A DNA stretch of 64,000 bases from Tubulanus polymorphus (GCF_964204645.1 NC_134025.1:13330001-13394000); one strand, 5' to 3'; positions 1,829-60,830 are shown, counted from the stretch's first letter. Translations and numbers: made by a program. Notes: generated from the letters alone by a model not told the origin.

Positions 1829-1926
1829 TGGAAATGACGACACTTCTCGACGATCAAATCGAAAACACCGTCGCCTAGATCAGGGCGAAATCACAGAACA
1901 TTTCTCTGATGATTCACTCGGATCTG
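1829..1926 (+). CDS. STARD9: Internal coding exon (HGNDDTSRRSNRKHRRLDQGEITEHFSDDSLGS)
   Basis: Acceptor gtttacag|T, donor G|gtaagt. Phase 2 in and phase 1 out link exon 1-1409 to the giant exon. Repeats the FSDDSL motif of the previous exon. Confidence 0.8.
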
Positions 1927-10402: not shown

Positions 10403-13400
10403 ATGGACAGCCAAAATCAAAAGGAAACTCTTGTCGCAGGAGAAAACCTCAAACTCGACCTGTTGATAACAAAGGGCTGAGGAGTTCAGATGAATATATC
10501 ATATCAACAGACAATGATAGCATTTATTCAGAAGATTCTATCAGTCCCAATGAAGACCGAGAGCACCAGATCAGAGCTCGCAGTGCATCTGCTGTTGTAG
10601 ACGGTGCTGTTGGCGGGATTGATATGGAAGCTTTTCCCCGCAGCGCATCGACAAATGCTGTGGACAATGCGCATGGTGACTTTCAAGGGAAAATGAAAGC
10701 TATCCCACCTGAAGAATCATTCCACCTGAGCTGGGATAGCGGTATTGGAACAATACAAAGAGGCCAGTCTGTAGCTGAAACGAATGTTTTTAGTGATGCA
10801 GAAACCTTATTAGGACCAGATGAAAATGATGCCGAGAGGTCGCTGAGAGATGTTGACGATTCCTTAAGATGTACCGCTCTAGAACAAACCGTCGTTAATC
10901 ACTGGTCATCTCTAGATTCTGCCGAAGCTGATGTGGTACGTCCTAGAATCGATGTAGAAGTCGGTGGAGTAGCCCTTCTGCCAGATGAATTGCGTGTAGT
11001 TATACCTACACGAAGACTACCAGAAAATGTGATTGTCACGGATACGGATGTTTGGAATAACACATCTAATGACAGAAATGCATCTCTTTTTGGATATTTG
11101 ACACCAGGAATAGAATCTAGTACAGCTGACATCGATTCCATTACACACGAAGGCATGTCAAATGATACCGTTGTAAGTGAAGGCACCTTCGTAATTGGTT
11201 ATCATCCCGATTATAATGATTGTGTACAGTTGAATAACAAACGGACCTTATCAGATCGGAAACGTGAGGATAGTAAAAGTACAGAACAAATTGACATTTC
11301 AGTACCTAAGGGTGAGAAAAAACAACGAGGGGCAAAATCTGAAGATGTTCATACTGGTGATGAGCATCTATCAGATGAATCCGATCTTGGAAACATTGAA
11401 CCTGACAGAGAAAGATACAGCGACGAGATGATAAGGTGCCAAATTGTACATTTCAAATGTCCCGATCCGTCGTCTCGACGGAATAAACGGGATCCTAATC
11501 GGGATGAAGAGCGGAGACGAGCATTGATCTTTTCAGACTTGTTGAACTTTAACATTCATGATAATTTTCACTCGGAATGTTTTAGTGCTGAAAGTTGGCC
11601 AGCTAATAATGAACAGGGTAGTGGCGAGGCGAGTCGAATACCAGATCTAATTGAAGGCCATAATACGTCTGTAGCTGTTTCGCATAGAATTATCAGTGAG
11701 CGATTATCAAGCGAAGAGCAACCTGGCACGCGAACATTGGATAGACTTGGCCGAGGGTCTCTTGAAGTGTGGTCGACCGATTATGATCATACTCCCGTAA
11801 TGGCCTGTCCGCCACAGCCAATACCCGTGACAGCTTCTCAGAAATTTTTTGATGCAATTACAGAAAGGCTGGATTCGAAGCCATCTAGACTAACATTAGG
11901 TATTACCAAAACCGAGATCTGGGAAGGGAATGGAACTGATGCTGATGACAAAATAGAAGTAACAATGACACCCCCAGGCCAGACATTAGAATCAAATCTT
12001 GTAGCCATTGATATACCATTGTCTTCTCGAAATTATGCGGTCACAGAGTTGTCTCTAGAAAGCCCTGAATTGATTACAATGCATCTGCTAGACCAGCAGG
12101 TCACGGGAAACAATACTGTCCTGTCAATCTCCGAGAATGATTCAGCTACGTCTCAGGACAGAGTCCAACAGGTTCCATGCCGTATTGAGACGTTCGCAAA
12201 TAATGTACATCACGCTGAGAAACAACATGCTACCACGGTTAGGGCAGATCTGCCTTCCCGAATCTGTCCAATATCTAAAGTGCCTTCAATTTTACCAGAA
12301 ACTGCTCCTATTTATAGTATACCCGGAAGCATTGTAACAAGGGAAGGCGTGCAAGTACCATCTACTGGCACTGAATATGCTCACAGTCAGATGAATGACA
12401 TTCTTAATGGACTAGAAATCGCTGCCGTTGAATTATGGTCAAATTATGACGATGGACACTTAACCACGGCTGGAAGCCAACCGGATACAGTTGATGCGCA
12501 TGAAAAAATGATCAGAAGACCAATGCTACTTCAGGTAACTGCCACAAATCGATGGAGTACCGATGGCCATGGAAATATTTTAAAAGGACCAATCGTAGAC
12601 GCGACTACTCATGGTGAGTCATTTACGGTGCCATTGGAGGCAATAATACAAGACATTTGGAAGACGGAAGTACCATTGGGTAAGACTGGTGATACAATGT
12701 GTAGGATGACATCCGAAAATAATAGATTAATCAAGGAGTGCTTAGACTATCTTGATTTCGCTCCATTAGAAACATGGGCCAACTCTGACCCTGATGCAAA
12801 AAGCCTGGTCTGTTTTGAACCACCAAATGACGTTCCTCCCATGCGCTACCAAAATGCAAAAAACCTTGCTGGACTTATTATGGCAGTTTGGGCCACAGAT
12901 GGCTTAGATGTAAAAGGAGAATCTAAGATTGAAGTTGAATATGCATCGGCATTTCACAATGGATCGGTATCACTTTCAAATAATTTCGGAGCAAAAATAT
13001 CAGTGACTGCAGAACCGAGATTCATTAGGCCTCAAACGCTACTTGAAGCAGTTGAAAATGATCTTTATGATGAAACTGCTAAAACATTTTTGGACCCAAG
13101 AACTGACGTCAAATATAATCTAGCGTCTGCCATAACTAGTGGTTTGATAGATGACGAAACTACAAAACTAGCTATTCCCAATGGCGGAAGATTATCCCTG
13201 AAAGATGCTATGACTGACGGACTCGTGGACTCGTGTTCCGGACAGGTATTAGATCAAATGACCGGCAGATTGATTTCTCTGCCAGTTGCTATTGAAAGGC
13301 GGATTGTTGTTTCTGATGTACGAATGAATGAAGACCAACGAGAATTCAAGGGCATGTCTACAGAAAAAATTGAAGAAAATAATGATTTGTCTGACGAAAA

Positions 13401-16400
13401 AAATGTGCCAAAAGGTTACATCCAAAGCAATAATTCTAGCACAACGAGTTTCAAATTACCTGATGTGATGAAAAGTGGAATATTGCGGAATGAATTTACC
13501 AATCCAAAAACAGGAAGGTTAGATGAAGCTATACAGGGTGGGACGATAGATGCTCAACATTTCAATATACTCCTGCCATCTGGGGATACAAATATATTAG
13601 ACATTGCACCTGCCACTGGGCAGGTAGATCCCAAAATGCGGCGAGTAACTGGCCGTGTGGCAGCTTCACACATACCTCTCATGCAAACTGCCACAACCGA
13701 TTTGCATGAAACGCGTTCGCCCATGGTTAATCTAAGCTATGAGGCAACAAGACATATGACTCCAGATAATGCCCATGATGATGCAAAATATGCTAGCATC
13801 ATTCAACCAAAATGTAGATCAACCGATGACATAAAACCTGTAGAAACAGATTTGATTGTTGATAACAACAAATTAACTCAAGAGAGTAAAAAGTTTGATT
13901 CTATGAAGAAAATGGATGTTGAGTGTATAATTAATCCACTAACTGATCAAGTAGGTAGAGATAAATTTGACTTTCCATTGCCAAAAAAACATTTTCTCGC
14001 AGAAGTTCATACAATCACTTTGCTCTTAGAAGAGCTCAGTACTTCACAACTTGAAATTTGGTCGAATACGGATGACTTTGATAGGCCATGCGATGCTTAC
14101 CAACCACCACTTTGTCACGAGCGAAAGGAAATCAAACGTTTTCATAACCCAGCACATCTTGAATCAATAACAATTCGACCTTGGAGTACTGATGGGTTAG
14201 GAACAGAGCATGGTGCTACTGAAATTGAGTACTTGTGTGGAGGAATTATTGGTTATGGAAAACTGGTTCCACCTGAGATACCAATTCCAGATGATGATTC
14301 CGCAAAATCTCAGAAAGTTAGGGCACAAACATGTTTAAAGAAAATCAAAATTTCAAATCGTCTTTGGAAGTCTGCCATCGATATCTGGACTAATCTGTCA
14401 GCAATTCCGAAACCTTTATCGGTTTCCCATCCTAGGAGAAAAATTGGCCCATGTCCAAATAAAGTTTTGTTAAAAAAACTAAGAATTTGCATCACCGATG
14501 AATGGCAAAATGATGGAATAGCAAATACAGAAATAACTATGGAGTCTCATTTTATATCCCCGAGTAAAAGAGGAATTTCATCTTGCCGAAGACGAAATAT
14601 TGACGACAGAGATATTGGGCCTGCAGACTACTTGCAGGGTAGTGAATCCGAATCCATATATGGACCTGATGGAAATATGGATATCTCAGCACAACTTAAT
14701 CATTCTATACAAAAAGGAGAATTTGATATTGCACCTATTGATTTATGGTCATCCGTACATCCAAGCGAACCAGTTTCCTATCATTCACCATCAAATGGTC
14801 AGCCATACAGTAAAAAGGCGTTGAAGAGATGGTTCACACTTATGTCTAAGCAGCTCCCTATTTGGCATACCGAGGGTTTAGATCATGGTTTTCATAAAGT
14901 GGAGATTGAATATGATACCCCTGACAGTTTTGGAAAGTACGTTTTGCCCTTGACAGACATTGATGTCACGGTGATGGACAGTTGCAAAAATTCTGATCCC
15001 AATGAATGTCAAAAAATATCATTTAAAAATGATGACTTAAACTTTAAACTCGCGCCCATTGATGTGTGGTGTACATCAATTCGGGATAAAGATCTCTCGG
15101 TAAATGTCCCCAATGGTTTAAGGAGGAAGACACGATCTTTCTCAAGACGAAGGCTGATGGAACGTTCGGCCAATGAAGTGTGGCATACTGATGGAATAGA
15201 CCGAGCGGATTATCTTTTTGAAGTAAGCTCTATAACTTCTTATGATAAGGGCACAGTAAAAGTGCACCAGCCGCGGTTGCATAGTATAGGAGAACGAGAT
15301 GAATGTTCGTCAAATATATATACATTGGATATGGTGAACCAGCCAGATAGTTTGATACTAAGTGCGTTGGTGGATCAAGGCTTGTTGATACCACCAGTGC
15401 CAGAAGATATAGCTGTCAAAGAAACTAAAGGAATAGCATGTGGTACACCGGTGAAAGAAGAAGAGAATGAAATAACCATGTTTTCAAAACATGCAGACTC
15501 TGTGGGTTTTGATTCACGCAATATACATGCTCATCAGGATATTCCAATGACTAAGGTAAGTAACATTTCACAATCATTAAACATTCGTATTAACGATCAG
15601 GTATTCAAGGCATCAGCTGGTAGCTTCGACGGTGAAGGTTCAACCAACTCCCATATTGAGAATATGCCTACATCAGTTCACTTAGCTGAAAATGATGATG
15701 TCCAGGAATTGAGCAGTCCGCAGGAAAGTGAACCAGGCGCAGTTAGTGACCTGACTTTCCTAGACGATAACAAGGCAGGTTCTAGTAGCATTTGTGCAAC
15801 TCTGCAAAAAGGTGATATGGGCAGAGAATTGTACGATGAATGTAAAGATATCATAATGAAAGATACCAGAGGGAAAATAATCACTGCACCGCATTATTTG
15901 ACTCAACAAGCTAATTTAGATAAAACAGCAGGAGAAACTGCCACACCAGAGCGTTCGAACGTATATGATTCAAAAAAACGATATGGCGTAAACCAGAAAG
16001 ACATCAGCGAAACATTATCGAATATGTCTGTACGCATGTCAAAATCTTGGAATGACATTTCCATGCTCAACGAAAACGATGTCAGTTCAAATGATTATGC
16101 AAAAAATGGAAAGCTGTTTGCAAACACACCTAAGGTGCATGGATGTACAGGTACACTTCCACCGATTTTTGAACTAAACAGTTTTACCGATGAAGACACA
16201 TTTGATCAATATGGTTCAAGAATGCATAGAAAATATACTCAATCAGATCCTGGTATCGACAACGCTGGAGTTAATATCCCGGAACGTTCATATTCAGAAA
16301 CAGATCTATATGCATTTGACAATTACCTTATGTTAAACGAGCTATCACAGTCATCTGATAGTATAATGTACATTTTCCTGGGTACGAGGTCTTCTACCAC

Positions 16401-19400
16401 AAAAAGCACCGATGATATATGTGATAACTTGGAAAATCAATTCGAAAAGTTGGGTGCCACGCCTACAACTAAGGAACATTCTGCATTTCCAAAGTCAGTT
16501 TTGAAGAGCAAGGATTCAACAGCCATTAAGATACTAACGGAAGTCAAAGGAGAAAGACCATCTGTATATCATCCAGGATTGGTAATGAGGAAAAGGAGAT
16601 TGGCCAAAAGCAAAAGGCCGAAGAGTTATCATTTTGATAGACGTATGATTCGAGATTTCGAGGGGGAAAATCACCACGAGGAACAGAGAAAATCATTTTA
16701 TGAACAAGACCTAGCTGCAACACCGGAATATGGAAGAAAAGGCAAGGAATGGACGCCTGCAACAGAAAGTGGAAAAGATCTAGCTGAGAAACAAAGATGT
16801 TCAATTGAGCAATCTTTAGATGTCGCTTCTGGTCAAGCAAACAAACATATATTTTCACTGTCGGGCGATGTTAACAATAGCGCTGTTTCATCCGATGTAA
16901 CGAAACTGGAGCCAATGATGTTGGAAGAAACTCTCGGCACATTCGTAGACCCGCAAACACGCAGCAAGATGAAACTCGCTGATGCGGTCGCCACTAGTTT
17001 GATTGACGGAACGTCGACTAAAGTAAAGACGCCGTCCGGAGGGTCGACAACACTTTCTCAAGCAATTTCTACCGGTATCGTCGATGGCCAATCAGGAAAG
17101 GGGTTTAGTCCATCGACCGGAAAACTGGTTGACTTGTCACAAGCCATTGACTCGGGAGTGGTGAGTACCTATTCGAAACCGAAGATGACGCTGAATGAAG
17201 CCGTTGAACGGGGTCTTTACGATAGTGATGACAATACAATCATCGACCCAAATACTGGTAGCAAAGTAAAATTACTATCGGCCATCTCCGACGGATTGAT
17301 CGACGCCACTTCGTCAGCGATAACTGCATCAGATGGCAGCGTCGTACAATTAAATCGAGCCCTTTCCGATGGTCTTGTCGACGCACACACTGGCAACGTT
17401 ATCGACGAAACTACAGGCAAATCCGTCGCACTGTCGGATGTTCTCACTAATAAACCGGCGACAGTTCCAAAAAACCTAAGTATCGAAGAAGCTATCGAGA
17501 TTGGTGTTTTCGACGCAAAAAGAAACGCATTTATCGATCCATTAACCGGAAAAGATATGACGCTAGCAGAGGCCGTACAACACGGATTGGTCAGCGCTGA
17601 AAGATCACACGTGAAAACATCTGATGGTGATTTCATGACCGTTGGCCGAGCTATTGCAACTGGTAGTATCGACGGCGAAACAGGAATTGTTAACGACCAA
17701 AAGACAGGCCAGGCAGTGTGCCTCGCTGAAGCTGTCTCCAAAGGATTGGTTAGCTCAGTCGAAGCGGTTGTTCCACCACTTAAATCGCTGACCGTCGACG
17801 AAGCAGTAAAAAGGGGTCTTTACGATGAAAAGACCAACACTTTCGTGGACCCCATCAACGGCAGTCGGATGAGTTTGGTTTCGGCTATTACCAGTGGGAA
17901 AATCGACGCGGAGGCGAGCAAAGTAAAAACGCTGACCGGAGACGTGTCACTCAATGAAGCTCTTTCATCCGGAATCGTAGATGCCACAACTGGAAAGGTT
18001 GCCGACCAAACTACCGGACAGATAATTTCACTGTCGGATGCTGTTAACAATGGCGCTGTTTCATCCGATGTTAGGCAACCGGAACCAATGACGTTGGATG
18101 AAGCGCTCGGCAAAGGTATTTACGATGCCAAATCGAACACAGTGATCGATCCAAACAGCGGAAATCGCTTGTCAATCATTGATGCGGTGAAAGAAGGAGT
18201 GATTGACGGAAAATTGAGTAAACTGAAACTGGCAACTGACAGCGATCGGGAAATAAGTCTTCAAGACGTCATTAACACAGGCATGATAGACCCCGATTCC
18301 GGTAAACTGATCGACCCTAACAGTGGACAAGTTATCGATGTCGAGCAAGCATTACAAACAGGCGCGAAACTAGCCGATACAACGCAAGTACGTGGAATTA
18401 CCATTGACGAAGCCATTTCTGCTGGATTGATGGACGGAAACACATTCGTAGATCCACAAACGGGCAGAAAGATGAACCTCGCTGATGCGGTCGCCACTGG
18501 TTTGATTGACGGAATGTCGAAAAAAGTAAAGACGCCGTCCGGAGGGTCGACAACACTTTCTCAAGCAATTTCTACCGGTATCGTCGATGGCTTATCAGGA
18601 AAGGTGTTTAGTCCATCGACCGGAAAACTGGTTGACTTGTCACAAGCCATTGACTCGGGAGTGGTGAGTACCTATTCGAAACCGAAGATGACGCTGAATG
18701 AAGCCATTGAACGGGGTCTTTACGATAGTGATGACAATACAATCATCGACCCAAATACTGGTAGCAAAGTAAAATTACTATCGGCCATCTCCGACGGAGT
18801 GATCGACGCCACCTCGTCAGCGATAACAGCTTCAGATGGCAGCGTCGTTCAATTAAATCGAGCCATTTCCGATGGTCTTGTCGACGCACACACTGGCAAC
18901 GTTATCGACGAAACTACAGGCAAATCCGTCGCGCTGTCGGATGTTCTCACTAATAAACCGGCGACAGTACCAAAAAACCTAAGTATCGAAGAAGCTATCG
19001 AGATTGGTGTTTTCGACGCAAAAAGAAACGCATTTATCGATCCATTAACCGGAAAAGATATGACGCTATCAGAGGCCGTACAACACGGATTGGTCAGCGC
19101 TGAAAGATCACACGTGAAAACATCTGATGGTGATTTCATGACCGTTGGCCGAGGTATTGCAACTGGTAGTATCGACGGCGAAACAGGAATTATTAACGAC
19201 CAAAAGACAGGCCAGGCAGTGTGCCTCGCTGAAGCTGTCTCCAAAGGATTGGTTAGCTCAGTCGAAGAGGATGTTCCACCACTTAAATCGCTGACCGTCG
19301 ACGAAGCAGTAAAAAGGGGTCTTTACGATGAAAAGACCAACACTTTCGTGGACCCCATCAACGGCAGTCGGATGAGTTTGGTTTCGGCTATTACCAGCGG

Positions 19401-22400
19401 GAAAATCGACGCGGAGGCGAGCAAAGTAAAAACGCTGACCGGAGACGTGTCACTCAATGAAGCTCTTTCATCCGGAATCGTAGATGCCACAACTGGAAAG
19501 GTTGCCGACCAAACTACCGGACAGATAATTTCACTGTCGGATGCTGTTAACAATGGCGCTGTTTCATCCGATGTTAGGCAACCGGAACCAATGACGTTGG
19601 ATGAAGCGCTCGGCAAAGGTATTTACGATGCCAAATCGAACACAGTGATCGATCCAAACAGCGGAAATCGCTTGTCAATCATTGATGCGGTGAAAGAGGG
19701 AGTGATTGACGGAAAATTGAGTAAACTGAAACTGGCAACTGACAGCGATCGGGAAATAAGTCTTCAAGACGTCATTAACACAGGCATGATAGACCCCGAT
19801 TCCGGTAAACTGATCGACCCTAACAGTGGACAAGTTATCGATGTCGAGCAAGCATTACAGACAGGCGCGAAACTAGCCGATACAATGCTGGTACGTGGAA
19901 TGACCATTGACGAAGCCATTTCTGCTGGATTGATGGACGGAAACACATTCGTAGACCCACAAACGGGCAGAAAGATGAACCTCGCTGATGCGGTCGCCAC
20001 TGGTTTGATTGCCGGAACGTCGACTAAAGTAAAGACGCCGTCCGGAGAGTCGACAACACTTTCTCAAGCAATTTCTGCCGGTATCGTTGATGGCCAATCA
20101 GGAAAGGTGTTTAGTCCATCGACCGGAAAACTGGTTGACTTGTCACAAGCCATTGACTCGGGAGTGGTGAGTACCTATTCGAAACCGAAGATGACGCTGA
20201 ATGAAGCCGTTGAACGGGGTCTTTACGATAGTGATGACAAAACGATCATCGACCCAAATACTGGTAGCAAAGTAAAATTACTATCGGCCATCTCCGACGG
20301 ATTGATCGACGCCACCTCGTCAGCGATAACTGCTTCAGATGGCAGCGTCGTTCAATTAAATCGAGCCATTTCCGATGGTCTTGTCGACGCACACACTGGC
20401 AACGTTATCGACGAAACTACAGGCAAATCCGTCGCGCTGTCGGATGTTCTCACTAATAAACCGGCGACAGTACCAAAAAACCTAAGTATCGAAGAAGCTA
20501 TCGAGATTGGTGTTTTCGACGCAAAAAGAAACGCATTTATCGATCCATTAACCGGAAAAGATATGACGCTAGCAGAGGCCGTACAACACGGATTGGTCAG
20601 CGCTGAAAGATCACACGTGAAAACATCTGATGGTGATTTCATGACCGTTGGCCGAGCTATTGCAACTGGTAGTATCGACGGCGAAACAGGAATTATTAAC
20701 GACCAAAAGACAGGCCAGGCAGTGTGCCTCGCTGAAGCTGTCTCCAAAGGATTGGTTAGCTCAGTCGAAGAGGATGTTCCACCACTTAAATCGCTGACTG
20801 TCGACGAAGCAGTAAAAAGGGGTCTTTACGATGAAAAGACCAACACTTTCGTGGACCCCATCAACGGCAGTCGGATGAGTTTGGTTTCGGCTATTACCAG
20901 CGGGAAAATCGACGCGGAGGCGAGCAAAGTAAAAACGCTGACCGGAGACGTGTCACTCAATGAAGCTCTTTCATCCGGAATCGTAGATGCCACAACTGGA
21001 AAGGTTGCCGACCAAACTACCGGACAGATAATTTCACTGTCGGATGCTGTTAACAATGGCGCTGTTTCATCCGATGTTAGGCAACCTGAACCAATGACGT
21101 TGGATGAAGCGCTCGGCAAAGGTATTTACGATGCCAAATCGAACACAGTGATCGATCCAAACAGCGGAAATCGCTTGTCAATCATTGATGCGGTGAAAGA
21201 AGGAGTGATTGACGGAAAATTGAGTAAACTGAAACTGGCAACTGACAGCGATCGGGAAATAAGTCTTCAAGACGTCATTAACACAGGCATGATAGACCCC
21301 GATTCCGGTAAACTGATCGACCCTAACAGTGGACAAGTTATCGATGTCGAGCAAGCATTACAGACAGGCGCGAAACTAGCCGATACAATGCCAGTACGTG
21401 GAATGACCATTGACGAAGCCATTTCTGCTGGATTGATGGACGGAAACACATTCGTAGACCCACAAACGGGCAGAAAGATGAACCTCGCTGATGCGGTCGC
21501 CACTGGTTTGATTGACGGAGCGTCGACTAAAGTAAAGACGCCGTCCGGAGAGTCGACAACACTTTCTCAAGCAATTTCTGCCGGTATCGTTGATGGCCAA
21601 TCAGGAAAGGTGTTTAGTCCATCGACCGGAAAACTGGTTGACTTGTCACAAGCCATTGACTCGGGAGTGGTGAGTACCTATTCGAAACCGAAGATGACGC
21701 TGAATGAAGCCGTTGAACGGGGTCTTTACGATAGTGATGACAATACAATCATCGACCCAAATACTGGTAGCAAAGTAAAATTACTATCGGCCATCTCCGA
21801 CGGAGTGATCGACGCCACCTCGTCAGCGATAACTGCTTCAGATGGCAGCGTCGTTCAATTAAATCGAGCCATTTCCGATGGTCTTGTCGACGCACACACT
21901 GGCAACGTTATCGACGAAACTACAGGCAAATCCGTCGCGCTGTCGGATGTTCTCACTAATAAACCGGCGACAGTACCAAAAAACCTAAGTATCGAAGAAG
22001 CTATCGAGATTGGTGTTTTCGACGCAAAAAGAAACGCATTTATCGATCCATTAACCGGAAAAGATATGACGCTAGCAGAGGCCGTACAACACGGATTGGT
22101 CAGCGCTGAAAGATCACACGTGAAAACATCTGATGGTGATTTCATGACCGTTGGCCGAGCTATTGCAACTGGTATTATCGACGGCGAAACAGGAATTATT
22201 AACGACCAAAAGACAGGCCAGGCAGTGTGCCTCGCTGAAGCTGTCTCCAAAGGATTGGTTAGCTCAGTCGAAGAGGATGTTCCACCACTTAAATCGCTGA
22301 CTGTCGACAAAGCAGTAAAAAGGGGTCTTTACGATGAAAAGACCAACACTTTCGTGGACCCCATCAACGGCAGTCGGATGAGTTTGGTTTCGGCTATTAC

Positions 22401-40400: not shown

Positions 40401-43400
40401 CAACGGCAGTCGGATGAGTTTGGTTTCGGCTATTACCAGCGGGAAAATCGACGCGGAGGCGAGCAAAGTAAAAACGCTGACCGGAGACGTGTCACTCAAT
40501 GAAGCTCTTTCATCCGGAATCGTAGATGCCACAACTGGAAAGGTTGCCGACCAAACTACCGGACAGATAATTTCACTGTCGGATGCTGTTAACAATGGCG
40601 CTGTTTCATCCGATGTTAGGCAACCTGAACCAATGACGTTGGATGAAGCGCTCGGCAAAGGTATTTACAATGCCAAATCGAACACAGTGATCGATCCAAA
40701 CAGCGGATATCGCTTGTCAATCATTGATGCGGTGAAAGAAGGAGTGATTGACGGAAAATTGAGTAAACTGAAACTGGCAACTGACAATGATCGGGAAATA
40801 AGTCTTCAAGACGTCATTAACACAGGCACGATAGACCCCGATGCCGGTAAACTGATCGACCCTAACAGTGGACAAGTTATCGATGTCGAGCAAGCGTTAC
40901 AGACAGGCGCGAAACTAGCCGATACAACGCAAGTACGTGGAATGACCATTGACGAAGCCATTTCTGCTGGATTGATGGACGGAAACACATTCGTAGACCC
41001 ACAAACGGGCAGCAAGATGAACCTCGCTGATGCGGTCGCCACTGGTTTGATTGACGGAACGTCGACTAAAGTAAAGACGCCGTCCGGAGAGTCGACAACA
41101 CTTTCTCAAGCAATTTCTGCCGGTATCTTTGATGGCCAATCAGGAAAGGTGTTTAGTCCATCGACCGGAAAACTGGTTGACTTGTCACAAGCCATTGACT
41201 CGGGAGTGGTGAGTACCTATTCGAAACCGAAGATGACGCTGAATGAAGCCGTTGAACGGGGTCTTTACGATAGTGATGACAATACAATCATCGACCCAAA
41301 TACTGGTAGCAAAGTAAAATTACTATCGGCCATCTCCGACGGAGTGATCGACGCCACCTCGTCAGCGATAACTGCTTCAGATGGCAGCGTCGTTCAATTA
41401 AATCGAGCCATTTCCGATGGTCTTGTCGACGCACACACTGGCAACGTTATCGACGAAACTACAGGCAAATCCGTCGCGCTGTCGGATGTTCTCACTAATA
41501 AACCGGCGACAGTACCAAAAAACCTAAATATCGAAGAAGCTATCAAGATTGGTGTTTTCGACGCCAAAAGAAACGCATTTATCGATCCATTAACCGGAAA
41601 AGATATGACGCTAGCAGAGGCCGTACAACACGGATTGGTCAGCGCTGAAAGATCACACGTGAAAACATCTGATGGTGATTTTATGACCGTTGGCCGAGCT
41701 ATTGCAACTGGTAGTATCGACGGCGAAACAGGAATTGTTAACGACCAAAAGACAGGCCAAGCAGTGTGCCTCGATGAAGCTGTCTCCAAAGGATTGGTTA
41801 GCTCAGTCGAAGCGGTTGTTCCACCACTTAAATCGCTGACCGTCGACGAAGCAGTAAAAAGGGGTCTTTACGATGAAAAGACCAACACTTTCGTGGACCC
41901 CATCAACGGCAGTCGGATGAGTTTGGTTTCGGCTATTACCAGCGGGAAAACCGACGCGGAGGCGAGCAAAGTAAAAACGCTGGCCGGAGACGTGTCACTC
42001 AATGAAGCTCTTTCATCCGGAATCGTAGATGCCACAACTGGAAAGGTTGCCGACCAAACAACCAGACAGATAATTTCACTGTCGGATGCTGTTAACAATG
42101 GCGCTTTTTCATCCGATGTTAGGCAACCTGAACCAATGACGTTGGATGAAGCGCTCGGCAAAGGTATTTACGATGCCAAATCGAACACAGTGATCGATCC
42201 AAACAGCGGAAATCGCTTGTCAATCATTGATGCGGTGAAAGAGGGAGTGATTGACGGAAAATTGAGTAAACTGAAACTGACAACTGACAGCGATCGGGAA
42301 ATAAGTCTTCAAGACGTCATTAACACAGGCATGATAGACCCCGATTCCGGTAAACTGATCGACCCTAACAGTGGACAAGTTATCGATGTCGAGCAAGTAT
42401 TACAGACAGGCGCGAAACTAGCCGATACAACGCCAGTACGTAAATTGACCATTGACGAAGCCATTTCTGCTGGATTGATGGACGGAAACACATTCGTAGA
42501 CCCACAAACGGGCAGAAAGATGAACCTCGCTGATGCGGTCGACACTGGTTTGATTGACGGAACATCGACTAAAGTAAAGACGCCGTCCGGAGAGTCGACA
42601 ACACTTTCTCAAGCAATTTCTGCCGGTATCGTTGATGGCCAATCAGGAAAGGTGTTTAGTCCATCGACCGGAAAACTGGTTGACTTGTCACAAGCCATTG
42701 ACTCGGGAGTGGAGAGTACCTATTCGAAACTGAAGATGACGCTGAATGAAGCCGTTGAACGGGGTCTTTACGATAGTGATGACAATACAATCATCGACCC
42801 AAATACTGGTAGCAAAGTAAAATTACTATCGGCCATCTCCGACGGAGTGATCGACGCCACCTCGTCAGCGATAACTGCTTCAGATGGCAGCGTCGTTCAA
42901 TTAAATCGAGTCATTTCCGATGGTCTTGTCGACGCACACACTGGCAACGTTATCGACGAAACTACAGGCAAATCCGTCGCGCTGTCGGATGTTCTCACTA
43001 ATAAACCGGCGACAGTACCAAAAAACTTAAGTATCGAAGAAGCTATCGAGATTGGTGTTTTCGACGCAAAAAGAAACGCATTTATCGATCCATTAACCGG
43101 AAAAGATATGACGCTAGCAGAGGCCGTACAACACGGATTGGTCAGCGCTGAAAGATCACTCGTGAAAACATCTGATGCTGATTTCATGACCGTTGGCCGA
43201 GCTATTGCAACTGGTAGTAACGACGGCGAAACAGGAATTGTTAACGACCAAAAGACAGGCCAAGCAGTGTGCCTCGATGAAGCTGTCTCCAAAGGATTGG
43301 TTAGCTCAGTCGAAGCGGTTGTTCCACCACTTAAATCGCTGACCGTCGACGAAGCAGTAAAAAGGGGTCCTTACGATGAAAAAACCAACACTTTCGTAGA

Positions 43401-46400
43401 CCCCATCAACGGCAGTCGGATGAGTTTGGTTTCGGCTGTTACCAGCGGGAAAATCGACGCGGAGGCAACCAAAGTAAAAACGCTGACCGGAGACGTGTCA
43501 CTCAATGAAGCTCTTTCATCCGAAATCGTAGATGCCACAACTGGAAAGGTTGCAGACCAAACTACCGGACAGGTAATTTCACTGTCGGATGCTGTTAACA
43601 ATGACCCTGTTTCATCCGATGTTAGGCAACCGGAACCAATGACGTTGGATGAAGCGCTCGGCAAAGGTATTTACGATGCCAAATCGAACACAGTGATCGA
43701 TCCAAACAGCGGATATCGCTTGTCAATCATTGATGCGGTGAAAGAAAGAGTGATTGACGGAAAATTGAGTAAACTGAAACTAGCAACTGACAGCGATCGG
43801 GAAATAAGTCTTCAAGACGTCATTAACACAGGCATGATAGACCCCGATTCCGGTAAACTGATCGACCCTGATAGTGGACAAGTTATCGATGTCGAGCAAG
43901 CATTACAGACAGGCGCGAAACTAGCCGATACAATGCCAGTACGTGGAATGACCATTGACGAAGCCATTTCTGCTGGATTGATGGACGAAAACACATTCGT
44001 AGATCCACAAACGGGCAGCACGATAAACCTCGCTGATGCGGTCACCACTGGTTTGATTGACGGAACGTCGACTAAATTAAAGACGCCGTCCGGAGGGTCG
44101 ACAACACTTTCTCAAGCAATTTCTACCGGTATCGTCGATGGCCAGTCAGGAAAGGTGTTTAGTCCATCGACCGGAAAACTGGTTGACTTGTCACAAGCCA
44201 TTGACTCGGGAGTGGTGAGTACCTATTCGAAACCGAAGATGACGCTGAATGAAGCCGTTGAACGGGGTCTTTACGATAGTGATGACAATACGATCATCGA
44301 CCCAAATACTGGTAGCAAAGTAAAATTACTATCGGCCATCTCCGACGGATTGATCGACGCCACCTCGTCAGCGATAACTGCTTCAGATGGCAGCGTCGTA
44401 CAATTAAATCGAGCCCTTTCCGATGGTCTTGTCGACGCACACACTGGCAACGTTGTCGACGAAACTACAGGCAAATCCGTCGCACTGTCGGATGTTCTCA
44501 CTAATAAACCGGCGACAGTACCAAAAAACCTAAGCATCGAAGAAGCTATCGAGATTGGTGTTTTCGACGCAAAAAGAAACGCTTTTATCGATCCATTAAC
44601 CGGAAAAGATATGACGCTAGCAGAGGCCGTAAAACACGGATTGGTCAGCGCTGAAAGATCACACGTGAAAACATCTGATGGTGATTTCATGACCGTTGGC
44701 CGAGCTATTGCAACTGGTAGTATCGACGGCGAAACAGGAATTATTTACGACCAAAAGACAGGCCAAGCAGTGTGCCTCGCTGAAGCTGTCTCCAAAGGAT
44801 TGGTTAGATCGGTCGAGGCGGTTGTTCCACCACTTAAATCGCTGACCGTCGACGAAGCAGTAAAAAGGGGTCTTTACGATGAAAAGACCAACACTTTCGT
44901 AGACCCCATCAACGGCAGTCGGATGAGTTTGGTTTCGGCTATTACCAGCGGTAAAATCGACGCGGAGGCGAGCAAAGTAAAAACGCTGACCGGAGACGTG
45001 TCACTCAATGAAGCTCTTTCATCCGGAATCGTAGATGCCACAACTGGAAAATTTGCCGACCAAACTACCGGACAGATAATTTCACTGTCGGATGCTGTTA
45101 ACAATGACCCTGTTTCATCCGATGTTAGGCAACCGAAACCAATGACGTTGGATGAAGCGCTCGGCAAAGGTATTTACGATGCCAAATCGAACGCAGTGAT
45201 CGATCCAAACAGCGGAAATCGCTTGTCAATCATTGATGCGGTGAAAGAAGGAGTGATTGACGGAAAATTGAGTAAACTGAAACTGGCAACTGACAGCGAT
45301 CGGGAAATAAGTATTCAAGACGTCATTAACACAGGCATGATAGACCCCGATTCCGGTAAACTGATCGACCCTGATAGTGGACAAGTTATCGATGTCGAGC
45401 AAGCATTACAGACAGGCGCGAAACTAGCCGATACAATGCCAGTACGTGGAATGACCATTGACGAAGCCATTTCTGCCGGATTGATGGACGAAAACACATT
45501 CGTAGATCCACAAACGGGCAGCAAGATAAACCTCGCTGATGCGGTCACCACTGGTTTGATTGACGGAACGTCGACTAAATTAAAGACGCCGTCCGGAGGG
45601 TCGACAACACTTTCTCAAGCAATTTCTACCGGTATCGTCGATGGCCAGTCAGGAAAGGTGTTTAGTCCATCGACCGGAAAACTGGTTGACTTGTCACTAG
45701 CCATTGACTCGGGAGTGGTGAGTACCTATTCGAAACCGAAAATGACGCTGAATGAAGCCGTTGAACGGGGTCTTTACGATAGTGATGACAATACGATCAT
45801 CGACCCAAATACTGGTAGCAAAGTAAAATTACTATCGGCCATCTCCGACGGATTGATCGACGCCACCTCGTCAGCGATAACTGCTTCAGATGGCAGCGTC
45901 GTACAATTAAATCGAGCCCTTTCCGATGGTCTTGTCGACGCACACACTGGCAACGTTATCGACGAAACTACAGGCAAATCCGTCGCACTGTCGGATGTTC
46001 TCACTAATAAACCGGCGACAGTACCAAAAAACCTAAGCATCGAAGAAGCTATCGAGATTGGTGTTTTCGACGCAAAAAGAAACGCATTTATCGATCCATT
46101 AACCGGAAAAGATATGACGCTAGCAGAGGCCGTAAAACACGGATTGGTCAGCGCTGAAAGATCACACGTGAAAACATCTGATGGTGATTTCATGACCGTT
46201 GGCCGAGCTATTGCAACTGGTAGTATCGACGGCGAAACAGGAATTATTAACGACCAAAAGACAGGCCAAGCAGTGTGCCTCGCTGAAGCTGTCTCCAAAG
46301 GATTGGTTAGATCGGTCGAGGCGGTTGTTCCACCACTTAAATCGCTGACCGTCGACGAAGCAGTAAAAAGGGGTCTTTACGATAAAAAGACCAACACTTT

Positions 46401-49400
46401 CGTAGACCCCATCAACGGCAGTCGGATGAGTTTGGTTTCGGCTATTACCAGCGGTAAAATCGACGCGGAGGCGAGCAAAGTAAAAACGCTGACCGGAGAC
46501 GTGTCACTCAATGAAGCTCTTTCATCCGGAATCGTAGATGCCACAACTGGAAAGGTTGCCGACCAAACTACCGGACAGATAATTTCACTGTCGGATGCTG
46601 TTAACAATGACCCTGTTTCATCCGATGTTAGGCAACCGAAACCAATGACGTTGGATGAAGCGCTCGGCAAAGGTATTTACGATGCCAAATCGAACGCAGT
46701 GATCGATCCAAACAGTGGAAATCGCTTGTCAATCATTGATGCGGTGAAAGAAGGAGTGATTGACGGAAAATTGAGTAAACTGAAACTGGCAACTGACAGC
46801 GATCGGGAAATAAGTCTTCAAGACGTCATTAACACAGGCATGATAGACCCCGATTCCGGTAAACTGATCGACCCTAACAGTGGACAAGTTAACGATGTCG
46901 AGCAAGCATTACAAACAGGCGCAAAACTTGCCGATACAATGCAAGTACGTGAAATTACCATTGACGAAGCCATTTCTGCTGGATTGATGGACGAAAACAC
47001 ATTCGTAGATCCACAAACGGGCAGCAAGATGAACCTCGCTGATGCGGTCGCCATTGGTTTGATTGACGGAACGTCGACAAAAGTAAAGACACCGTCCGGA
47101 GGGTCGACAACACTTTCTCAAGCAATTTCTACCGGTATCGTCGATGGCCAATCAGGAAAGGTGTTTAGTCCATTGACCGGAAAACTGGTTGACCTGTCAA
47201 AAGCCATTGACTCGGGAGTGGTGAGTATCTATTCGAAACCGAAGATGTCGCTGAATGAAGCCGTTGAACGGGGTCTTTACGATAGTGATGACAATACGAT
47301 CATCGACCCAAATACTGGTAGCAAAGTAAAATTACTATCGGCCATCTCCGACGGATTGATCGACGCCACCTCGTCAGCGATAACTGCTTCAGATGGCAGC
47401 GTCGTACAATTAAATCGAGCCCTTTCCGATGGTCTTGTCGACGCACACACTGGCAACGTTATCGACGAAACTACAGGCAAATCCGTCGCACTGTCGGATG
47501 TTCTCACTAATAAACCGACGACAGTACCAAAAAACCTAAGCATCGAAGAAGCTATCGAGATTGGTGTTTTCGACGCAAAAAGAAACGCATTTATCGATCC
47601 ATTAACCGGAAAAGATATGACGCTAGCAGAGGCCGTACAACACGGATTGGTCAGCGCTGAAAGATCACTCGTGAAAACATCTGATGGTGATTTCATGACC
47701 GTTGGCCGAGCTATTGCAACTGGTAGTATCGACGGCGAAACAGGAATTTTTAACGACCAAAAGACAGGCCAGGCAGTGTGCCTCGCTGAAGCTGTCTCCA
47801 TAGGATTGGTTAGCTCAGTCGAAGCGGTTGTTCCACCACTTAAATCGCTGACCGTCGACGAAGCAGTAAAAAGGGGTCTTTACGATGAAAAGACCAACAC
47901 TTTCGTGGACCCCATCGACGGCAGTCGGATGAGTTTGCTTTCGGCTATAACCAGCGGTAAAATCGACGCGGAGGCGAGCAAAGTAAAAACGCTGACCGGA
48001 GACGTGTCACTCAATGAAGCTCTTTCATCCGGAATCGTAGATGCCACAACTGGAAAGGTTGCCGACCAAACTACCGGACAGATAATTTCACTGTCGGATG
48101 CTGTTAACAATGGCGCTGTTTCATCCGATGTTAGGCAACCGGAACCAATGACGTTGGATGAAGCGCTCGGCAAAGGTATTTACGATACCAAATCGAACAC
48201 AGTGATCGATCCAAACAGCGGATATCGCTTGTCAATCATTGATGCGGTGAAAGAAAGAGTGATTGACGGAAAATTGAGTAAACTGAAACTAGCAACTGAC
48301 TGCGATCGGGAAATAAGTCTTCAAGACGTCATTAACACAGGCATGATAGACCCCGATTCCGGTAAACTGATCGACCCTGATAGTGGACAAGTTATCGATG
48401 TCGAGCAAGCATTACAGACAGGCGCGAAACTAGCCGATACAATGCCAGTACGTGGAATGACCATTGACGAAGCCATTTCTGCCGGATTGATGGACGAAAA
48501 CACATTCGTAGATCCACAAACGGGCAGCAAGATAAACCTCGCTGATGCGGTCACCACTGGTTTGATTGACGGAACGTCGACTAAATTAAAGACGCCGTCC
48601 GGAGGGTCGACAACACTTTCTCAAGCAATTTCTACCGGTATCGTCGATGGCCAATCAGGAAAGGTGTTTAGTCCATCGACCGGAAAACTGGTTGACTTGT
48701 CACAAGCCATTGACTCGGGAGTGGTGAGTACCTATTCGAAACCGAAGATGACGCTGAATGAAGCCGTTGAACGGGGTCTTTACGATAGTGATGACAATAC
48801 GATCATCGACCCAAATACTGGTAGCAAAGTAAAATTACTATCGGCCATCTCCGACGGATTGATCGACGCCACCTCGTCAGCGATAACTGCTTCAGATGGC
48901 AGCGTCGTACACCTAAATCGAGCCCTTTGCCATGGTCTTGTCGACGCACACACTGGCAACGTTATCGACGAAACTACAGGCAAATCCGTCGCGCTGTCGG
49001 ATGTTCTCACTAATAAACCGGCGACAGTACCAAAAAACCTAAGCATCGAAGAAGCTATCGAGATTGGTGTTTTCGACGCAAAAAGAAACGCATTTATCGA
49101 TCCATTAACCGGAAAAGATATGACGCTAGCAGAGGCCGTACAACACGGATTGGTCAGCGCTGAAAGATCACACGTGAAAACATCTGATGGTGATTTCATG
49201 ACCGTTGGCCGAGCTATTGCAACTGGTAGTATCGACGGCGAAACAGGAATTATTAACGACCAAAAGACAGGCCAAGCAGTGTGCCTCGCTGAAGCTGTCT
49301 CCAAAGGATTGGTTAGATCGGTCGAGGCGGTTGTTCCACCACTTAAATCGCTGACCGTCGACGAAGCATTAAAAAGGGGTCTTTACGATGAAAAGACCAA

Positions 49401-52400
49401 CACTTTCGTAGACCCCATCAACGGCAGTCGGATGAGTTTGGTTTCGGCTATTACCAGTGATAATCTCGACGCGAAGGCGGGCAAAGTAAAAACGCTGACC
49501 GGAGACGTGTCACTCAATGAAGCCCTTTCATCCGGAATCGTAGATGCCACAACTGGAAAGGTTGTCGACCAAACAAAGTTATCTACATCCTTATCTGAAC
49601 CGCATTTCATTACGAATTTTCACCGTGATGGCTCTACTCAGACGGATAGCATTACTCTATTGCCTCTTGTTTCTGACTACATTTCTTTGAAGGAATGTAA
49701 TGATATTGCTGTTCAAACATTTTGTACTGATACTGTATTGGGTCCCTTCTTCGAGGACAAAAACCTCATTGTAACGAGTGATCCTTCGCCCCTTTCCTTA
49801 CGAGGCAATCGGGAACAGTGCGAACAATACCATTATGTCCTGCAAAAAGATACTTTAATTACAAATCTTATCGACGATGCAACCCAAACTGATTTCTCTT
49901 ATACAGATAGCTCGGACGAAAGTGATTTCTTCGATGACGATGAATATGGAAACATTTGTGAAGGATTTAAATTCGAGAACACCAAACTTCAGAATATTGG
50001 TATACAAGCGGATTCGGCATCTACACAAACATTTTCTGTTGACATTAATGCCGCACTTACCAACGATGAAGTCGAAGATTGTGCTCAGGCATACAATCTT
50101 TCTTTGAAAACGGCTTTACGAGAACATAAGCCGGATGAGAATAATGATGGATGTATTGAATTGAGAGCTTATTCCCTTTCGTCTCTTGGCGATTCAGGAA
50201 TGTCTAGTTCTTTTGTGACATCTCATTCTGATATTTCTCGTTCCTCACAGCTGTCTACTTATGACATTAAAGTTAACCCATCAGTCCATCCCCCTTTAAT
50301 TCTGAGTCCCGTTGCTGAAAAGAAAAATGCGCTGGTTTCAGCGAAAAACGCCGCGATGTCTAATGCTGATTGGGGATCATCACATATGACTCCTAATATG
50401 ATGCACTCACTTTCCGAGAGTTCTCCCGAAAATGCGTCCAATGTGGCCATTCTACCTGAAGAAATCATTGCTTCATCTGAATTGACAAAATGTCGTAGCG
50501 AACCAGCATGTGAAAGATCTTGTTCTAAGGAAAAAGTGATAGGAGCTGAGAATTCTTACATATTGCCTGAATACACAGAGAAGACATCTGACGTGGCAGT
50601 GGAAGTATTCATTGAGACGCCGAAAATGTTTCCAGTTGCTACACAGACTGATTTCAATATTGATCCTATTGAATCTCATAATTCCCAAGACGAACTGTGC
50701 GAATCACTAAGTGGTGTCACACGAACAGATGTCAATACGTATATAAAAGATCGTATTCGCGATTCTCACGGGGATTTGTCAGAGTTGGTTCTACTTCCTC
50801 CTGAATATCTTAACGTTGTTGATATCGATGAACTTCTTGGAATGTTAGACGACGACGAATATAATGATAGCCACATTGAAACTCCTGAAATCATGCATGT
50901 TATGTCAATGCCTGACTTGAATGACCTTGATGACGTTGCTGGATTCAAAATAAATCTGACTAATGATCAAAGACCTACTAAGTCGGCCACAATGATTCAA
51001 AAAAGAAAGAAGATTTACTGTGATCTAGATATTCCCAACTATAAATTTGGAGTTGATGGGTTTGACGAACTTAAGGCTGAGCATCGAAGGATGTTAGATT
51101 TATTGAAGAAAACTGAGGCGGACCACCAAATTATGAAAGACAAGCGTGATCAAATTCGTTCGTCACATTCCACGCAACAAAGAACCGATGATGCAGTATC
51201 GCCATCGACGCCATTGTCAAGTTCCAGTAGTCCCGATTCGGTGATACTGTCAGAGAAGTATACTCCACAGAACAGGAATTTCCATATGAAACAAGAACTA
51301 ACCAATGCATTTAGAAAGCCCGATTGTGCAACGGACATTAGACGGACTAATGGATCGTATGAACTCTACAGTGAACATACACGTAATGACACTTATACGA
51401 CGAGCTTCACTGATGGACAGGAAGGTCAACAGCGACAAAGTTGGGAAAACCAAACGTATCCTATTGGAAAAACAGATTTAAATGATGCAGAATCAAACAC
51501 GTCGATGTCTCGAAGATTTAAAACGGTTATGGGTCACATAGAAAGGTCTTCAGATTACCAAAAGAAGCAAAGTACTGGACTGAAAACAGGCATGAACATA
51601 ACATCGAGTGAGCGAACTAGAGAATGGACGAATTATCTTCCCTCTGATAGTTTGTCAATCAAAACTGACAACCAAAAGTTACACGATATGACCAGTAACT
51701 TGGAAGCGGTTTACACCAACCAAAGGAGCAACAATTTTAGTATTGCGGATGGAGTCCCAAGCAACGCTGATGATGTTTGTCAAAATGACCTAGACCAGCA
51801 AGAGGAATTGACTTCAACAAAATCAGAGGCAGATGAAAATATATATGCTAGTCTAGCAAGAAGGTTAATGGAAAGTAAGCAGGCTGATACTAATTTGGGT
51901 ATGGATGATACTATGAGCACGTATGCAGATGACTGCACCCAAACTGGCGATCCTAACGTTGGTTTAGATGAATCAATTGAGACTGATTCAGCAATCCAAA
52001 ACCAGCTGGATAAACTCGTGCAAGAACGGACGCATATAATTGAGTTACTAGGGCATGATTACGCTCCGTCGCGAGTATGGACTGAACTGGTTGAGGCCCA
52101 GTTGAATTATGGCATTGGACAGACCGATTCTTTACTGGAAAGCTTAGACCAATGTGTTGATTTTGATCCTAATTTACTTAGTGGTCGACGAGCACGTACG
52201 GAAGACAATCTTCATATCATTACTAGATCATACCTGTTCGATTATCGACAACGATTAGAAAATTCCAAGAAAGATATTGAAGATCAAATTCAATCATTGG
52301 AGCGAATGAAAAAGAAGAAGCACAAACGGCCATCATTCAATCCTATGAAACTGCGCAGACAACTGCAGTTTGAAGCATTTAAATTAGAAAGAACTCGAAA

Positions 52401-52676
52401 TCAAGTAGTTGAACAAGCAAAAGGGCGAATATTCAATGCACGCATTCGCAGTCACACGTCAACTCCTAGAAGTGATGAATGCGATGATCTGTCAACGACA
52501 ACAGACTCGTTGCATTCAAGGCACGATAGATTTATGAGGCCCCACAACCACGTTGAGTATCTTGTTAACCTTAGACGTTCTCTCGTAGCATCAAGTTTGG
52601 AAAAAGAAAAACCTCAAAGACCTTCACCCAACCAAGGAAACTTAACACCCAAGCGTACTAGCAACAGTCTTGAAAG
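10403..52676 (+). CDS. STARD9: Giant 42,274-bp coding exon: unique N-part, ~32.6-kb plectin-like repeat array, acidic/coiled-coil C-part
   Basis: Lies within the uninterrupted ORF 10369-52707. Acceptor gtttctccacag|AT (phase 1, G+AT=Asp) and donor AG|gtatat (phase 2). ELVEAQLNYGIGQTDSLL (~52084-52137) and HVEYLVNLRRSLV resemble, from memory, conserved blocks in the STARD9 tail. Confidence 0.85.
13030..13310 (+). repeat. Solitary diverged plectin-like module upstream of the array
   Basis: TLLEAVENDLYDETAKTFLDPRTDVKYNLASAITSGLID...LSLKDAMTDGLVDSCSGQVLDQMTGRLISLPVAIERRIV follows the same four-motif pattern as the array modules. Confidence 0.8.
16939..49575 (+). repeat. Coding tandem array, 1503-bp unit (501 aa), ~21.7 copies, plectin/plakin-repeat-like
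   Basis: The same landmark recurs at 17820, 19323, 20826 ... 49383 (22 times, exactly 1503 apart). The motif L-x-E-A-[IV]-x-x-G-L-[YI]-D...D-P-x-[TS]-G is typical of plectin repeats. Confidence 0.95.
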
Positions 52677-52688
52677 GTATATACTTTT

Positions 52689-54004: not shown

Positions 54005-54083
54005 TTGGATTTAGAATGCCATTGAAATATTGAAAGTTGAATTTTCCTTCCGTCATTGACCCTAATCTTGTTCATTATTGTAG

Positions 54084-54311
54084 ATCACGCGATTGGGAAC
54101 TAGACTCGTCTATAACAGACTTTTCATTTGGAGACATATCAAACGTCTCGTCACTTCATGATGAACCTATGCGGGTCCTTGAAGCTTGCCAGCGGCAACG
54201 CCTCCAAAGCCAGGCTCAAATTACGGAAGCAAGGGAAAAACTTCGTGACCTGCCACCAGTACTCAGATACAAACGGACGAAAGAAAAATCAAAGTCAGCC
54301 CATTCTTTAAG
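54084..54311 (+). CDS. STARD9: Internal exon, probable coiled coil (LEACQRQRLQSQAQITEAREKLR)
   Basis: Acceptor ttattgtag|A, donor AG|gtgagg. Phase 2 in and out; open frame. Confidence 0.8.
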
Positions 54312-55073: not shown

Positions 55074-55173
55074 GGACAGCCGGAGATTAGAGGAGGAAAA
55101 CTATCATCATCGTCACCGATTTAATACTTCTACTCAGGAATTACGATACGCACGTCCACAAGCATTAGAACAG
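55074..55173 (+). CDS. STARD9: Internal exon (DSRRLEEENYHHRHRFNTSTQELRYARPQALEQ)
   Basis: Acceptor ctttgtgtag|G, donor CAG|gtactt. Phase 2 in, phase 0 out. Confidence 0.7.
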
Positions 55174-55932
55174 GTACTTGCATGATTTTAAGATCATCTC
55201 CAAACTCGTTGCATTTGCATCCATCTTTATAGATCTTGGGCATTTGATCTCGGAAAATTATGATTCTTGCATTTGACGGAATATGGCTTTCACGGCTATA
55301 TCATCCTATAATAATACTCAACGTGATACGTATATACTAAATGTTTTACAATTTTCTATTAGTTACGCATAGCATCGAGTGATACAACTTCTGTAAGTCT
55401 CTCGTGTCTATATATTTCAAAACCATAGTTCTTAAATCTTATCTATCTCAATATACAGGCCCGTAGCTAGATTATTCAAAAGCTAGTCAAGACCTAGCCA
55501 ACATGGCAAAGAGTGCGAGTGTCCTTTTTGAAACAGCGCACATATTTTGCCCTTTCGAAGTAGGCCTTTTTCTGAAATAATTGTTACAGGCGAATCTTTG
55601 AAAAAGATTCTTGGAAAGGAGCCCTCAACTCCCACTGGCTACGGGCATGATGTATTTCCGGTGTTGGAATTTTCTTTATTTAATATAGTGGCTTTGTATA
55701 TATACAGCACTCTAAAATGAAATTAGTTCAAACAAATACAAAACACCATTTCTTTATTCAGGTACATCACATTCTTGGTGTATTTATGTCAATTAGACAT
55801 ACATTCTTTGACAGAAATTCTTACAGTCTTTGATAGAAACATTTGAACCATATTGTAGTACCTTATGTTGATTGGACTACATTACGTTACGACAAGATGC
55901 ATGATCTAAAAGTTTTGTTTTCATACTCTTAG

Positions 55933-56006
55933 GTCATAGATAGCGAGATAGATGCGTTACGAAAAAATCATGAAAATGAAGCCTTAGGAAGGTCGTCATA
56001 CAGGAG
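55933..56006 (+). CDS. STARD9: Internal exon ([24 protein letters not shown])
   Basis: Acceptor actcttag|GTC, donor AG|gtattc. Phase 0 in, phase 2 out. Confidence 0.7.
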
Positions 56007-56016
56007 GTATTCTGAC

Positions 56017-56430
<414 letters not shown>

Positions 56431-56433
56431 ACC

Positions 56434-56478
56434 GTCAAGAGATGCAGCCTCTAGACGGTTTTCCCCTGGTGATCGGAA

Positions 56479-56571
<93 letters not shown>

Positions 56572-56618
56572 AGTTCCGATCACCAGGGGAAAACCGTCTA
56601 GAGGCTGCATCTCTTGAC
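56434..56618. repeat. Perfect 49-bp inverted repeat flanking a (TA)n spacer
   Basis: gtcaagagatgcagcctctagacggttttcccctggtgatcggaactta (56434-56482) is the reverse complement of 56570-56618. Confidence 0.95.
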
Positions 56619-60778: not shown

Positions 60779-60830
60779 CTTGGATCTGTCGAAACCTGTA
60801 TTTCGGAATATATGGTTCAAGAACCTATTG
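60779..60830 (+). CDS. STARD9: Small internal exon (LGSVETCISEYMVQEPI)
   Basis: Acceptor tttgtttattcag|CTT, donor G|gtgagt. Phase 0 in, phase 1 out; needed to keep frame. Confidence 0.7.

Follow-up and report, generated by a model that had tools for sequence, protein, structure and literature searches.

A predicted 42-kb internal coding exon in Tubulanus polymorphus that very likely owes its size to a plectin-type repeat array

How does a single internal coding exon come to occupy more than 42 kb, and is an exon of that size kept whole in the mRNA? We addressed these questions at a locus of the nemertean Tubulanus polymorphus, a ribbon worm (GCF_964204645.1 NC_134025.1:13330001-13394000) by analysing a stretch of 64,000 nucleotides, referred to below as the window, whose features are collected in Table 1 with positions counted from its first letter. 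An ORF scan of the window identified a run in frame +1 that is stop-free from 10366 to 52707 (14,114 codons including the stop), and the exon lying within it, 14,091 codons plus one nucleotide, has AG before it and GT after it. The remaining five frames contain 153–803 stops within the tandem array alone, and in 50 shuffles of the exon the longest open run reached 200 codons (mean 129), bearing out the original prediction, made from the DNA alone, of an exon with no stop over its full length. The product computed from the translation is acidic and has a mass of about 1.48 MDa, and the whole protein of the gene would exceed 1.5 million daltons. Without the array the exon would measure 9,651 nt. 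We regard the 42-kb internal coding exon and its array as almost certainly real.

Table 1. Features of the window (predicted unless evidence is named)
Feature	Position	Strand	Description
Upstream coding exon	1..1409	+	Open at left window edge; Lys/Ser/Pro-rich; phase 2 out; ORF 1-1413, GT donor, in-frame join; predicted
98-nt coding exon before giant exon	1829..1926	+	Phase 2 in, 1 out; AG/GT ends and frame; predicted
Giant internal coding exon	10403..52676	+	42,274 nt; donor spliced in X4; same-phase ortholog in L001
5' non-array part	10403..16953	+	6.55 kb, ~2,180 aa, low-complexity; degenerate paired-tryptophan repeat
Lone ~100-aa plectin-type module	13024..13330	+	27-44% identical to array modules; Pfam PF00681 E 2.8e-9
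Tandem array	16954..49576	+	32,623 nt; 21.7 x 1,503 nt (501 aa), five ~100-aa modules per block
3' non-array part	49577..52676	+	3.1 kb, ~1,030 aa; X1 DNA contig gap-free and spliced X4 contig
81-nt in-frame stretch absent from X4 contig	50681..50761	+	4-nt microhomology, non-canonical ends
Conserved helical block	51979..52608	+	Common to P0038 and L001, 30-32% identity
Next exon	54084..54311	+	Phase 2 in; acceptor used in X4 contig
Predicted exon	55074..55173	+	Phase 2 in, 0 out
Predicted exon	55467..55559	+	Phase 0/0
Predicted exon, doubtful use	55933..56006	+	Phase 2 out, mismatched to 60329 acceptor
Nine exons of NCBI model XP_074648391.1	58769..63412	+	337 aa, START domain; 3' end of giant gene or separate gene

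AHNAK is a familiar giant coding exon of about half this size or less. The original prediction made the same comparison with MUC16 and titin, and for these it holds: in PMC3467050, the human internal coding exons include MUC16 exon 3 at >21 kb and titin at >17 kb. The giant exon shares with them the status of a large internal coding exon, is about twice the size of MUC16 exon 3, and encodes predicted folded cytoplasmic modules as opposed to mucin repeats. If included whole, it would be twice the largest human case in PMC3467050 and would probe the limits of exon definition. Literature searches listed nothing published about the exon or its gene, and no self match was present among database proteins of 5,500–17,500 aa or 30–5,499 aa; since all 36 long matches are shorter than 8,000 aa, the protein collection may lack longer chains. 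The locus is an annotation blind spot, as database searches yielded no protein from the giant exon. What is new here is the size of the exon, the traceable origin of that size and the presumed non-plakin host of the repeats.

Joined to its two flanking exons, the giant exon is entered in phase 1 and left in phase 2. An in-silico transcript without it has a junction at residue 502 followed by a stop at residue 509, within 7 codons, so the expectation that skipping would shift the frame was correct. Credible splice sites had been proposed for both ends. Five sequencing runs (X1–X5) were available, none of them recorded as RNA: X1–X3 cover introns and are DNA-like, X4 is taken as RNA from its splice only, and X5, guessed to be RNA (2015), had no relevant coverage and no inference was drawn from it. 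In X4, a 6,490-nt contig spans 49535-52676 and then passes into the exon at 54084, which it matches at 29 of 30 letters, a 1,407-nt GT-AG intron having been removed, which demonstrates use of the donor at 52676; this contig extends 3,429 nt past the donor. The corresponding X1 contig runs on into the intron, and neither X1 nor X2 contains such a splice. The acceptor at 10403 is a prediction, credible because it allows an in-frame join and because an orthologous exon is found in the stretch L001 from another marine animal, described below.

An array of near-identical units invites the suspicion of an assembly expansion from far fewer copies, all the more as no read or contig, of DNA or RNA, spans the array and the run sharing most with the assembly, X1, may be its own sample. 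The 1,503-nt period is constant over the 21.7 copies, with no indel among units. The 21 full units all differ from one another: in 210 pairwise comparisons no two were identical, with differences at 2–56 positions (mean 1.9%), and 95 of the 165 variants are private to one unit. Divergence is graded: the mean difference rises from 19.8 for neighbouring units to 40–46 for units 15–20 apart, and the end units are the most diverged. Closest neighbours and most diverged ends are the pattern expected of unequal crossing-over. X1 contig depth is 436–512 in the array and 29.7–32.9 outside, a ratio of about 14–17 that is not a copy number as such and comes from contigs none of which spans the array, and sharing of 31-mers predicts 16.0–16.6-fold depth. 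Because the units are never identical and the depth ratio matches expectation, expansion by the assembler is very improbable. Both non-array parts are covered gap-free by X1 contigs, one of which (10167-17026) differs from the assembly at 12 letters without a gap.

The exon had been proposed to be either constitutive or trimmed by internal, exitron-type splicing, with RNA as the check. Contigs of X4 splice the donor and reach into the array, where they carry inner-unit alleles and a unit-to-unit junction; none of them spans it. Depth in X4 is 42–150 in the collapsed array and 151 for the 3' contig, although any given word recurs in about 16 copies. A 3' bias of 0.25–0.35 per kb with full inclusion would explain this low depth, and partial exclusion fits it equally. 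For the words of 13000-18500, the share present in X4 (0.24) is close to that expected from the array portion of this stretch by itself, and it was not used as evidence.

If the exon were real but an internal splice usually took the array out, giving a common protein of some 3,500–4,500 aa and a minor giant form, the low per-copy depth would be accounted for. With a crude matrix built from 14–15 sites, in-frame pairs that would drop the array are 15555 with 50251, and 12613 with 49907 or 51929; the donor at 15555 has a perfect consensus, and the acceptors at 49907, 50251 and 51929 are all in frame. Yet the major X4 contig crosses these acceptors unbroken into the array, no array-removing split occurs among the loose ends of X4 contigs listed for 48100-52735 (contigs drop rare forms), and inner-unit alleles are present in X4. 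Among the 165 array variants there are no stops, against 3.8–5.7 expected (P 0.003–0.02), so selection keeps the frame of the array open, and no shorter annotated form was found among 7,986 scored proteins below 5,500 aa, a weak point. The same matrix found no acceptor of at least 5 bits in the array, whereas the intron upstream of the exon has 4.4 per kb; it is a weak instrument, since the true acceptor at 10403 scores -1.6 when left out. Routine removal of the array is therefore unlikely, and of the two alternatives originally proposed constitutive inclusion is the better supported, with exitron splicing receiving no support from the X4 contig over 48100-52735. The giant exon would then keep its ancestral ends around an array that offers no strong internal acceptor, and we consider it likely that the main mRNA retains the array.

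The 6,490-nt X4 contig lacks 81 nt in frame (27 codons), a stretch that an X2 DNA contig from the same sample retains. No GT-AG or AT-AC ends are found at any of the five equivalent cuts. Given these non-canonical ends, the 4-nt microhomology and the X2 contig, the gap reflects either an allele with a deletion or a jump during reverse transcription rather than an exitron; jumps of this kind are described in PMC8240250. As separate observations, the consensus donor at 15555 is phase 0 and lies 1.4 kb before the array, and most blocks within 16954-49576 contain the hexamers AATAAA and ATTAAA, which thus reappear every 1,503 nt and might cause premature polyadenylation.

What does the array encode? 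It amounts to about 10,900 aa, each module of about 100 aa consisting of two hairpin-helix motifs of about 50 aa. The five modules of a block are 29–43% identical (four of the five compared) and retain D-P and Gly positions; with a profile built from the four compared modules, the exon yields 110 modules in total, including the lone copy. Two blocks match Pfam Plectin (PF00681) at E 3.4e-83 and 273.6 bits, and the lone module scores 37.1 bits (cut-off 20.5). A phmmer search matched the array to desmoplakin. The closest proteins, 36 matches among 1,963 candidates at 25–29% identity, are of invertebrate spectraplakin type as judged by their Pfam domains, and the spacing of about 100 aa is also present in their repeat regions. 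The best match to a block, P0002, is a 7,866-aa spectraplakin-type protein of Paralvinella with a C-terminal run of modules spaced at about 100 aa.

A single module is predicted with pLDDT 85 and pTM 0.71 as hairpins alternating with short helices, as in the plectin repeat; for three modules the pTM is 0.40, which leaves their relative placing undefined. The leading Foldseek matches are desmoplakin, envoplakin and periplakin, though they are weak (best E 2.8e-4, TM 0.12). With VIA-align, none of 48,161 chains reached Z >= 2 against one module, which is not evidence of a new fold, and three modules found one unrelated chain (Z 2.0) among 126. By profile and domain matches, then, the modules are plectin-type repeats. 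According to PMC3352950, the vertebrate plakin repeat domain consists of 4.5 tandem 38-residue repeats, and invertebrate plectin repeats are without this grouping. The period of about 100 aa with two motifs of about 50 aa rules out the vertebrate layout.

We traced the origin of the exon's size through the conserved block near its 3' end, which matches P0038 at 32% identity. Scanning 593 candidate stretches with an alignment of this block recovered at least one relative, L001, with a 7,780-nt exon that is likewise phase 1 in and phase 2 out. The first 60 aa of the two exons align with a score of 57 against 29 ± 5.9 for shuffled sequences (none of 300 shuffles reaches it), and the end block matches at E 1.6e-19. 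Searches of the L001 exon found no plectin module, and nothing in it reaches a Pfam cut-off. Measured between two anchors that both exons have in common, chosen post hoc from the alignment, L001 has 758 aa and the giant exon 719 aa plus the array. Elsewhere the block attracted no Pfam family at cut-off, no usable ESM Atlas match and no named relative in word-indexed protein searches; NCBIfam returned nothing above cut-off, and the ESM Atlas search with P0001 gave generic START clusters only.

The shared phases imply that a large, frame-shifting exon is ancestral, so that the phase asymmetry first noted for the giant exon is real without being specific to the giant form. The array is very probably a gain in this lineage, a polarity that depends on one full relative and, for the 3' block, on P0038. 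An ancestral exon of 8–10 kb encoding a disordered stalk has thus likely gained a plectin-type tandem array. In the course we envisage, a module of about 100 aa of the invertebrate spectraplakin type would have entered the exon, its lone copy persisting at 13024-13330; duplication long ago would have produced the five diverged modules, and the five-module block would then have been amplified recently by unequal crossing-over, leaving units 1.9% apart. The original prediction was right about the size of the exon, and recognised neither the plectin-type nature of the repeats nor that the size reflects an array inside an exon that was large to begin with. With its 7.8-kb ortholog, which has matching ends and no repeats, the giant exon forms a natural before-and-after pair.

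Constraint on the amino-acid sequence of the array is weak: pN/pS is 0.65 (p 0.012) uncorrected and 0.74–0.83 (p 0.07–0.27) with transition bias, and 99 of 501 residue positions vary among units. In the 5' part, 10 of the 11 differences seen in X1 change a residue and none creates a stop. Since 1,503 is divisible by three, gain or loss of whole blocks preserves the frame. It is possible, although we lean against it, that the array expanded in frame almost neutrally and that its copy number is functionless, with only stops and frameshifts purged because they cost the C-terminus; such an account agrees with ours on anatomy and differs on function. The corrected pN/pS not clearly below 1, the variable residue positions and an ortholog that lacks the array all suit it, whereas the conservation of the D-P and Gly positions among old modules at 29–43% identity, the confident predicted fold of one module and the presumed cost of adding 33 kb to the mRNA speak for a functional array. 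The product would carry a stalk with some 110 small folded modules, as beads on a string, between a likely N-terminal kinesin motor and a C-terminal, lipid-binding START domain. By analogy with epiplakin and Shot, the array would most likely serve as a multivalent intermediate-filament tether or a long spacer; that its modules bind filaments is, on this analogy, a tentative suggestion.

The analogy has limits in both cases. Epiplakin (EPPK1), according to PMC8782857, carries plakin-type repeats in one long exon, with a repeat number that varies among species and probably within them. The likeness lies in plakin-type repeats encoded by a single long exon; the difference is that EPPK1 has about 5,000 aa, consists of plakin repeat domains only and has its entire coding sequence in one exon, whereas the array here has 10,900 aa in modules of about 100 aa within an internal exon with unrelated flanks. 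With 3,200 aa lying outside the array and with spliced neighbours, the giant exon is not an epiplakin. Drosophila Shot-PH, according to 10.1101/122010, contains about 3,000 aa with some 40 plectin repeats in a single internal exon. Repeats of the invertebrate type in one internal exon are common to both, and the best sequence matches are at 25–32% identity, but the exon of Shot is included only in some isoforms and lies between the plakin and spectrin domains. The giant exon shifts the frame if skipped, and its array is 3.6 times longer and built of near-identical units. A spectraplakin would carry a spectrin rod, EF-hands and a GAS2 domain after the repeats, and none of these turned up in 49603-52674, the exon at 54084 or the START exons. 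In the way it works, the giant exon comes closest to the repeat regions that epiplakin and Shot each encode in one exon, but it belongs to neither.

The identity of the host gene turns on the exons 8–11 kb downstream, which encode a START domain (Pfam E 2.9e-18) whose closest relatives of known structure are StAR, STARD5 and STARD6. STARD9, a kinesin-3, has a single very large exon for its middle, and the conserved block 51979-52608 may resemble STARD9. According to PMC10203878 and PMC12692329, human STARD9 has 4,700 aa with a kinesin motor, an FHA domain, many disordered regions and a C-terminal START. A very long disordered middle and a C-terminal START would be common to both genes (PMC10203878, PMC12692329, 10.64898/2026.09.25.754437); the human protein, by contrast, is limited to 4,700 aa, plectin repeats are not mentioned in the passages cited, and in the giant gene the START join is putative. 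No kinesin or FHA domain was found within the 64-kb window, and the upstream exon at its left edge matches no Pfam family. Aside from the lone module, the non-array parts match no Pfam family at cut-off; they are Ser/Asp-rich and form a long domain-free middle that is not specific to STARD9.

NCBI instead annotates the START exons as a stand-alone 337-aa protein (XP_074648391.1) with its own ATG at 58769 and no isoform suffix, to which a downstream exon has a 100% match. The giant exon's gene might accordingly end near 56–58 kb, with nothing STARD9-like about it and START in a separate neighbour. Besides the NCBI model, the predicted exon 55933-56006 is out of frame with 60329, and L001 shows no START in 2.3 kb downstream, a distance too short to weigh much. 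No credible phase-2-in, phase-0-out exon was found between 56570 and 60329. Against a separate gene, the phase-0 donors at 55173 and 55559 both join 60329 in frame, X4 has 3,429 nt past the donor when nearby exons supply 495 nt, and a terminal exon at 55933 would run into a 550-nt TA run. The length of the X4 contig past the donor would fit a START join followed by a long 3' UTR. Four of the six exon routes tried from 54084 to START are in frame and use 1,294–1,456 nt. A hand model with the acceptor at 60436 and lacking exon 60779-60830 was rejected, as the NCBI model fits better there, and for that reason the 15,023-aa protein we derived represents one possible route only. On balance a separate START gene appears rather unlikely.

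We therefore favour, with some reserve, a STARD9-like host, an assignment made from sequence features; we do not file the giant gene as a member of STARD9, because the motor would lie to the left of the window. Taken as a whole, the explanation we judge best, and consider somewhat more probable than its alternatives together, is an ancestral 8–10 kb exon that gained an array and is probably whole in the mRNA of a likely STARD9-like gene. A bolder version, which we advance tentatively, is that a STARD9-type kinesin captured a spectraplakin module and carries about 110 copies of it in one unskippable 42-kb exon, which would yield a motor-cytolinker-lipid-carrier chimera of >15,000 residues from an mRNA of >45 kb. 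The domain combination would be new, with plectin-type repeats sitting in a gene other than a plakin, one that probably encodes a kinesin-START protein.

Several further features of the window deserve mention. An older, degenerate repeat of a paired-tryptophan motif occupies 11770-15200 in about seven copies, and the L001 exon has a few similar motifs. Between the giant exon's gene and START, 56019-56620 contains the 550-nt TA run, which includes an inverted repeat (about 50 nt, around 56432-56617), and next to it come some 800 nt of insertion-like sequence; together these may disturb annotation across the interval. An interspersed element of very high copy number, which contains internal repeats of 154 nt as well as a (CGTC)n run, is present at 2380-3660, 6940-7450 and 52685-54005, with decayed copies near 59300-59910 and 62260-62950, and its X1 depth rises to about 326,000 compared with about 32 for single-copy sequence. 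One of its copies begins 9 nt past the donor of the giant exon.
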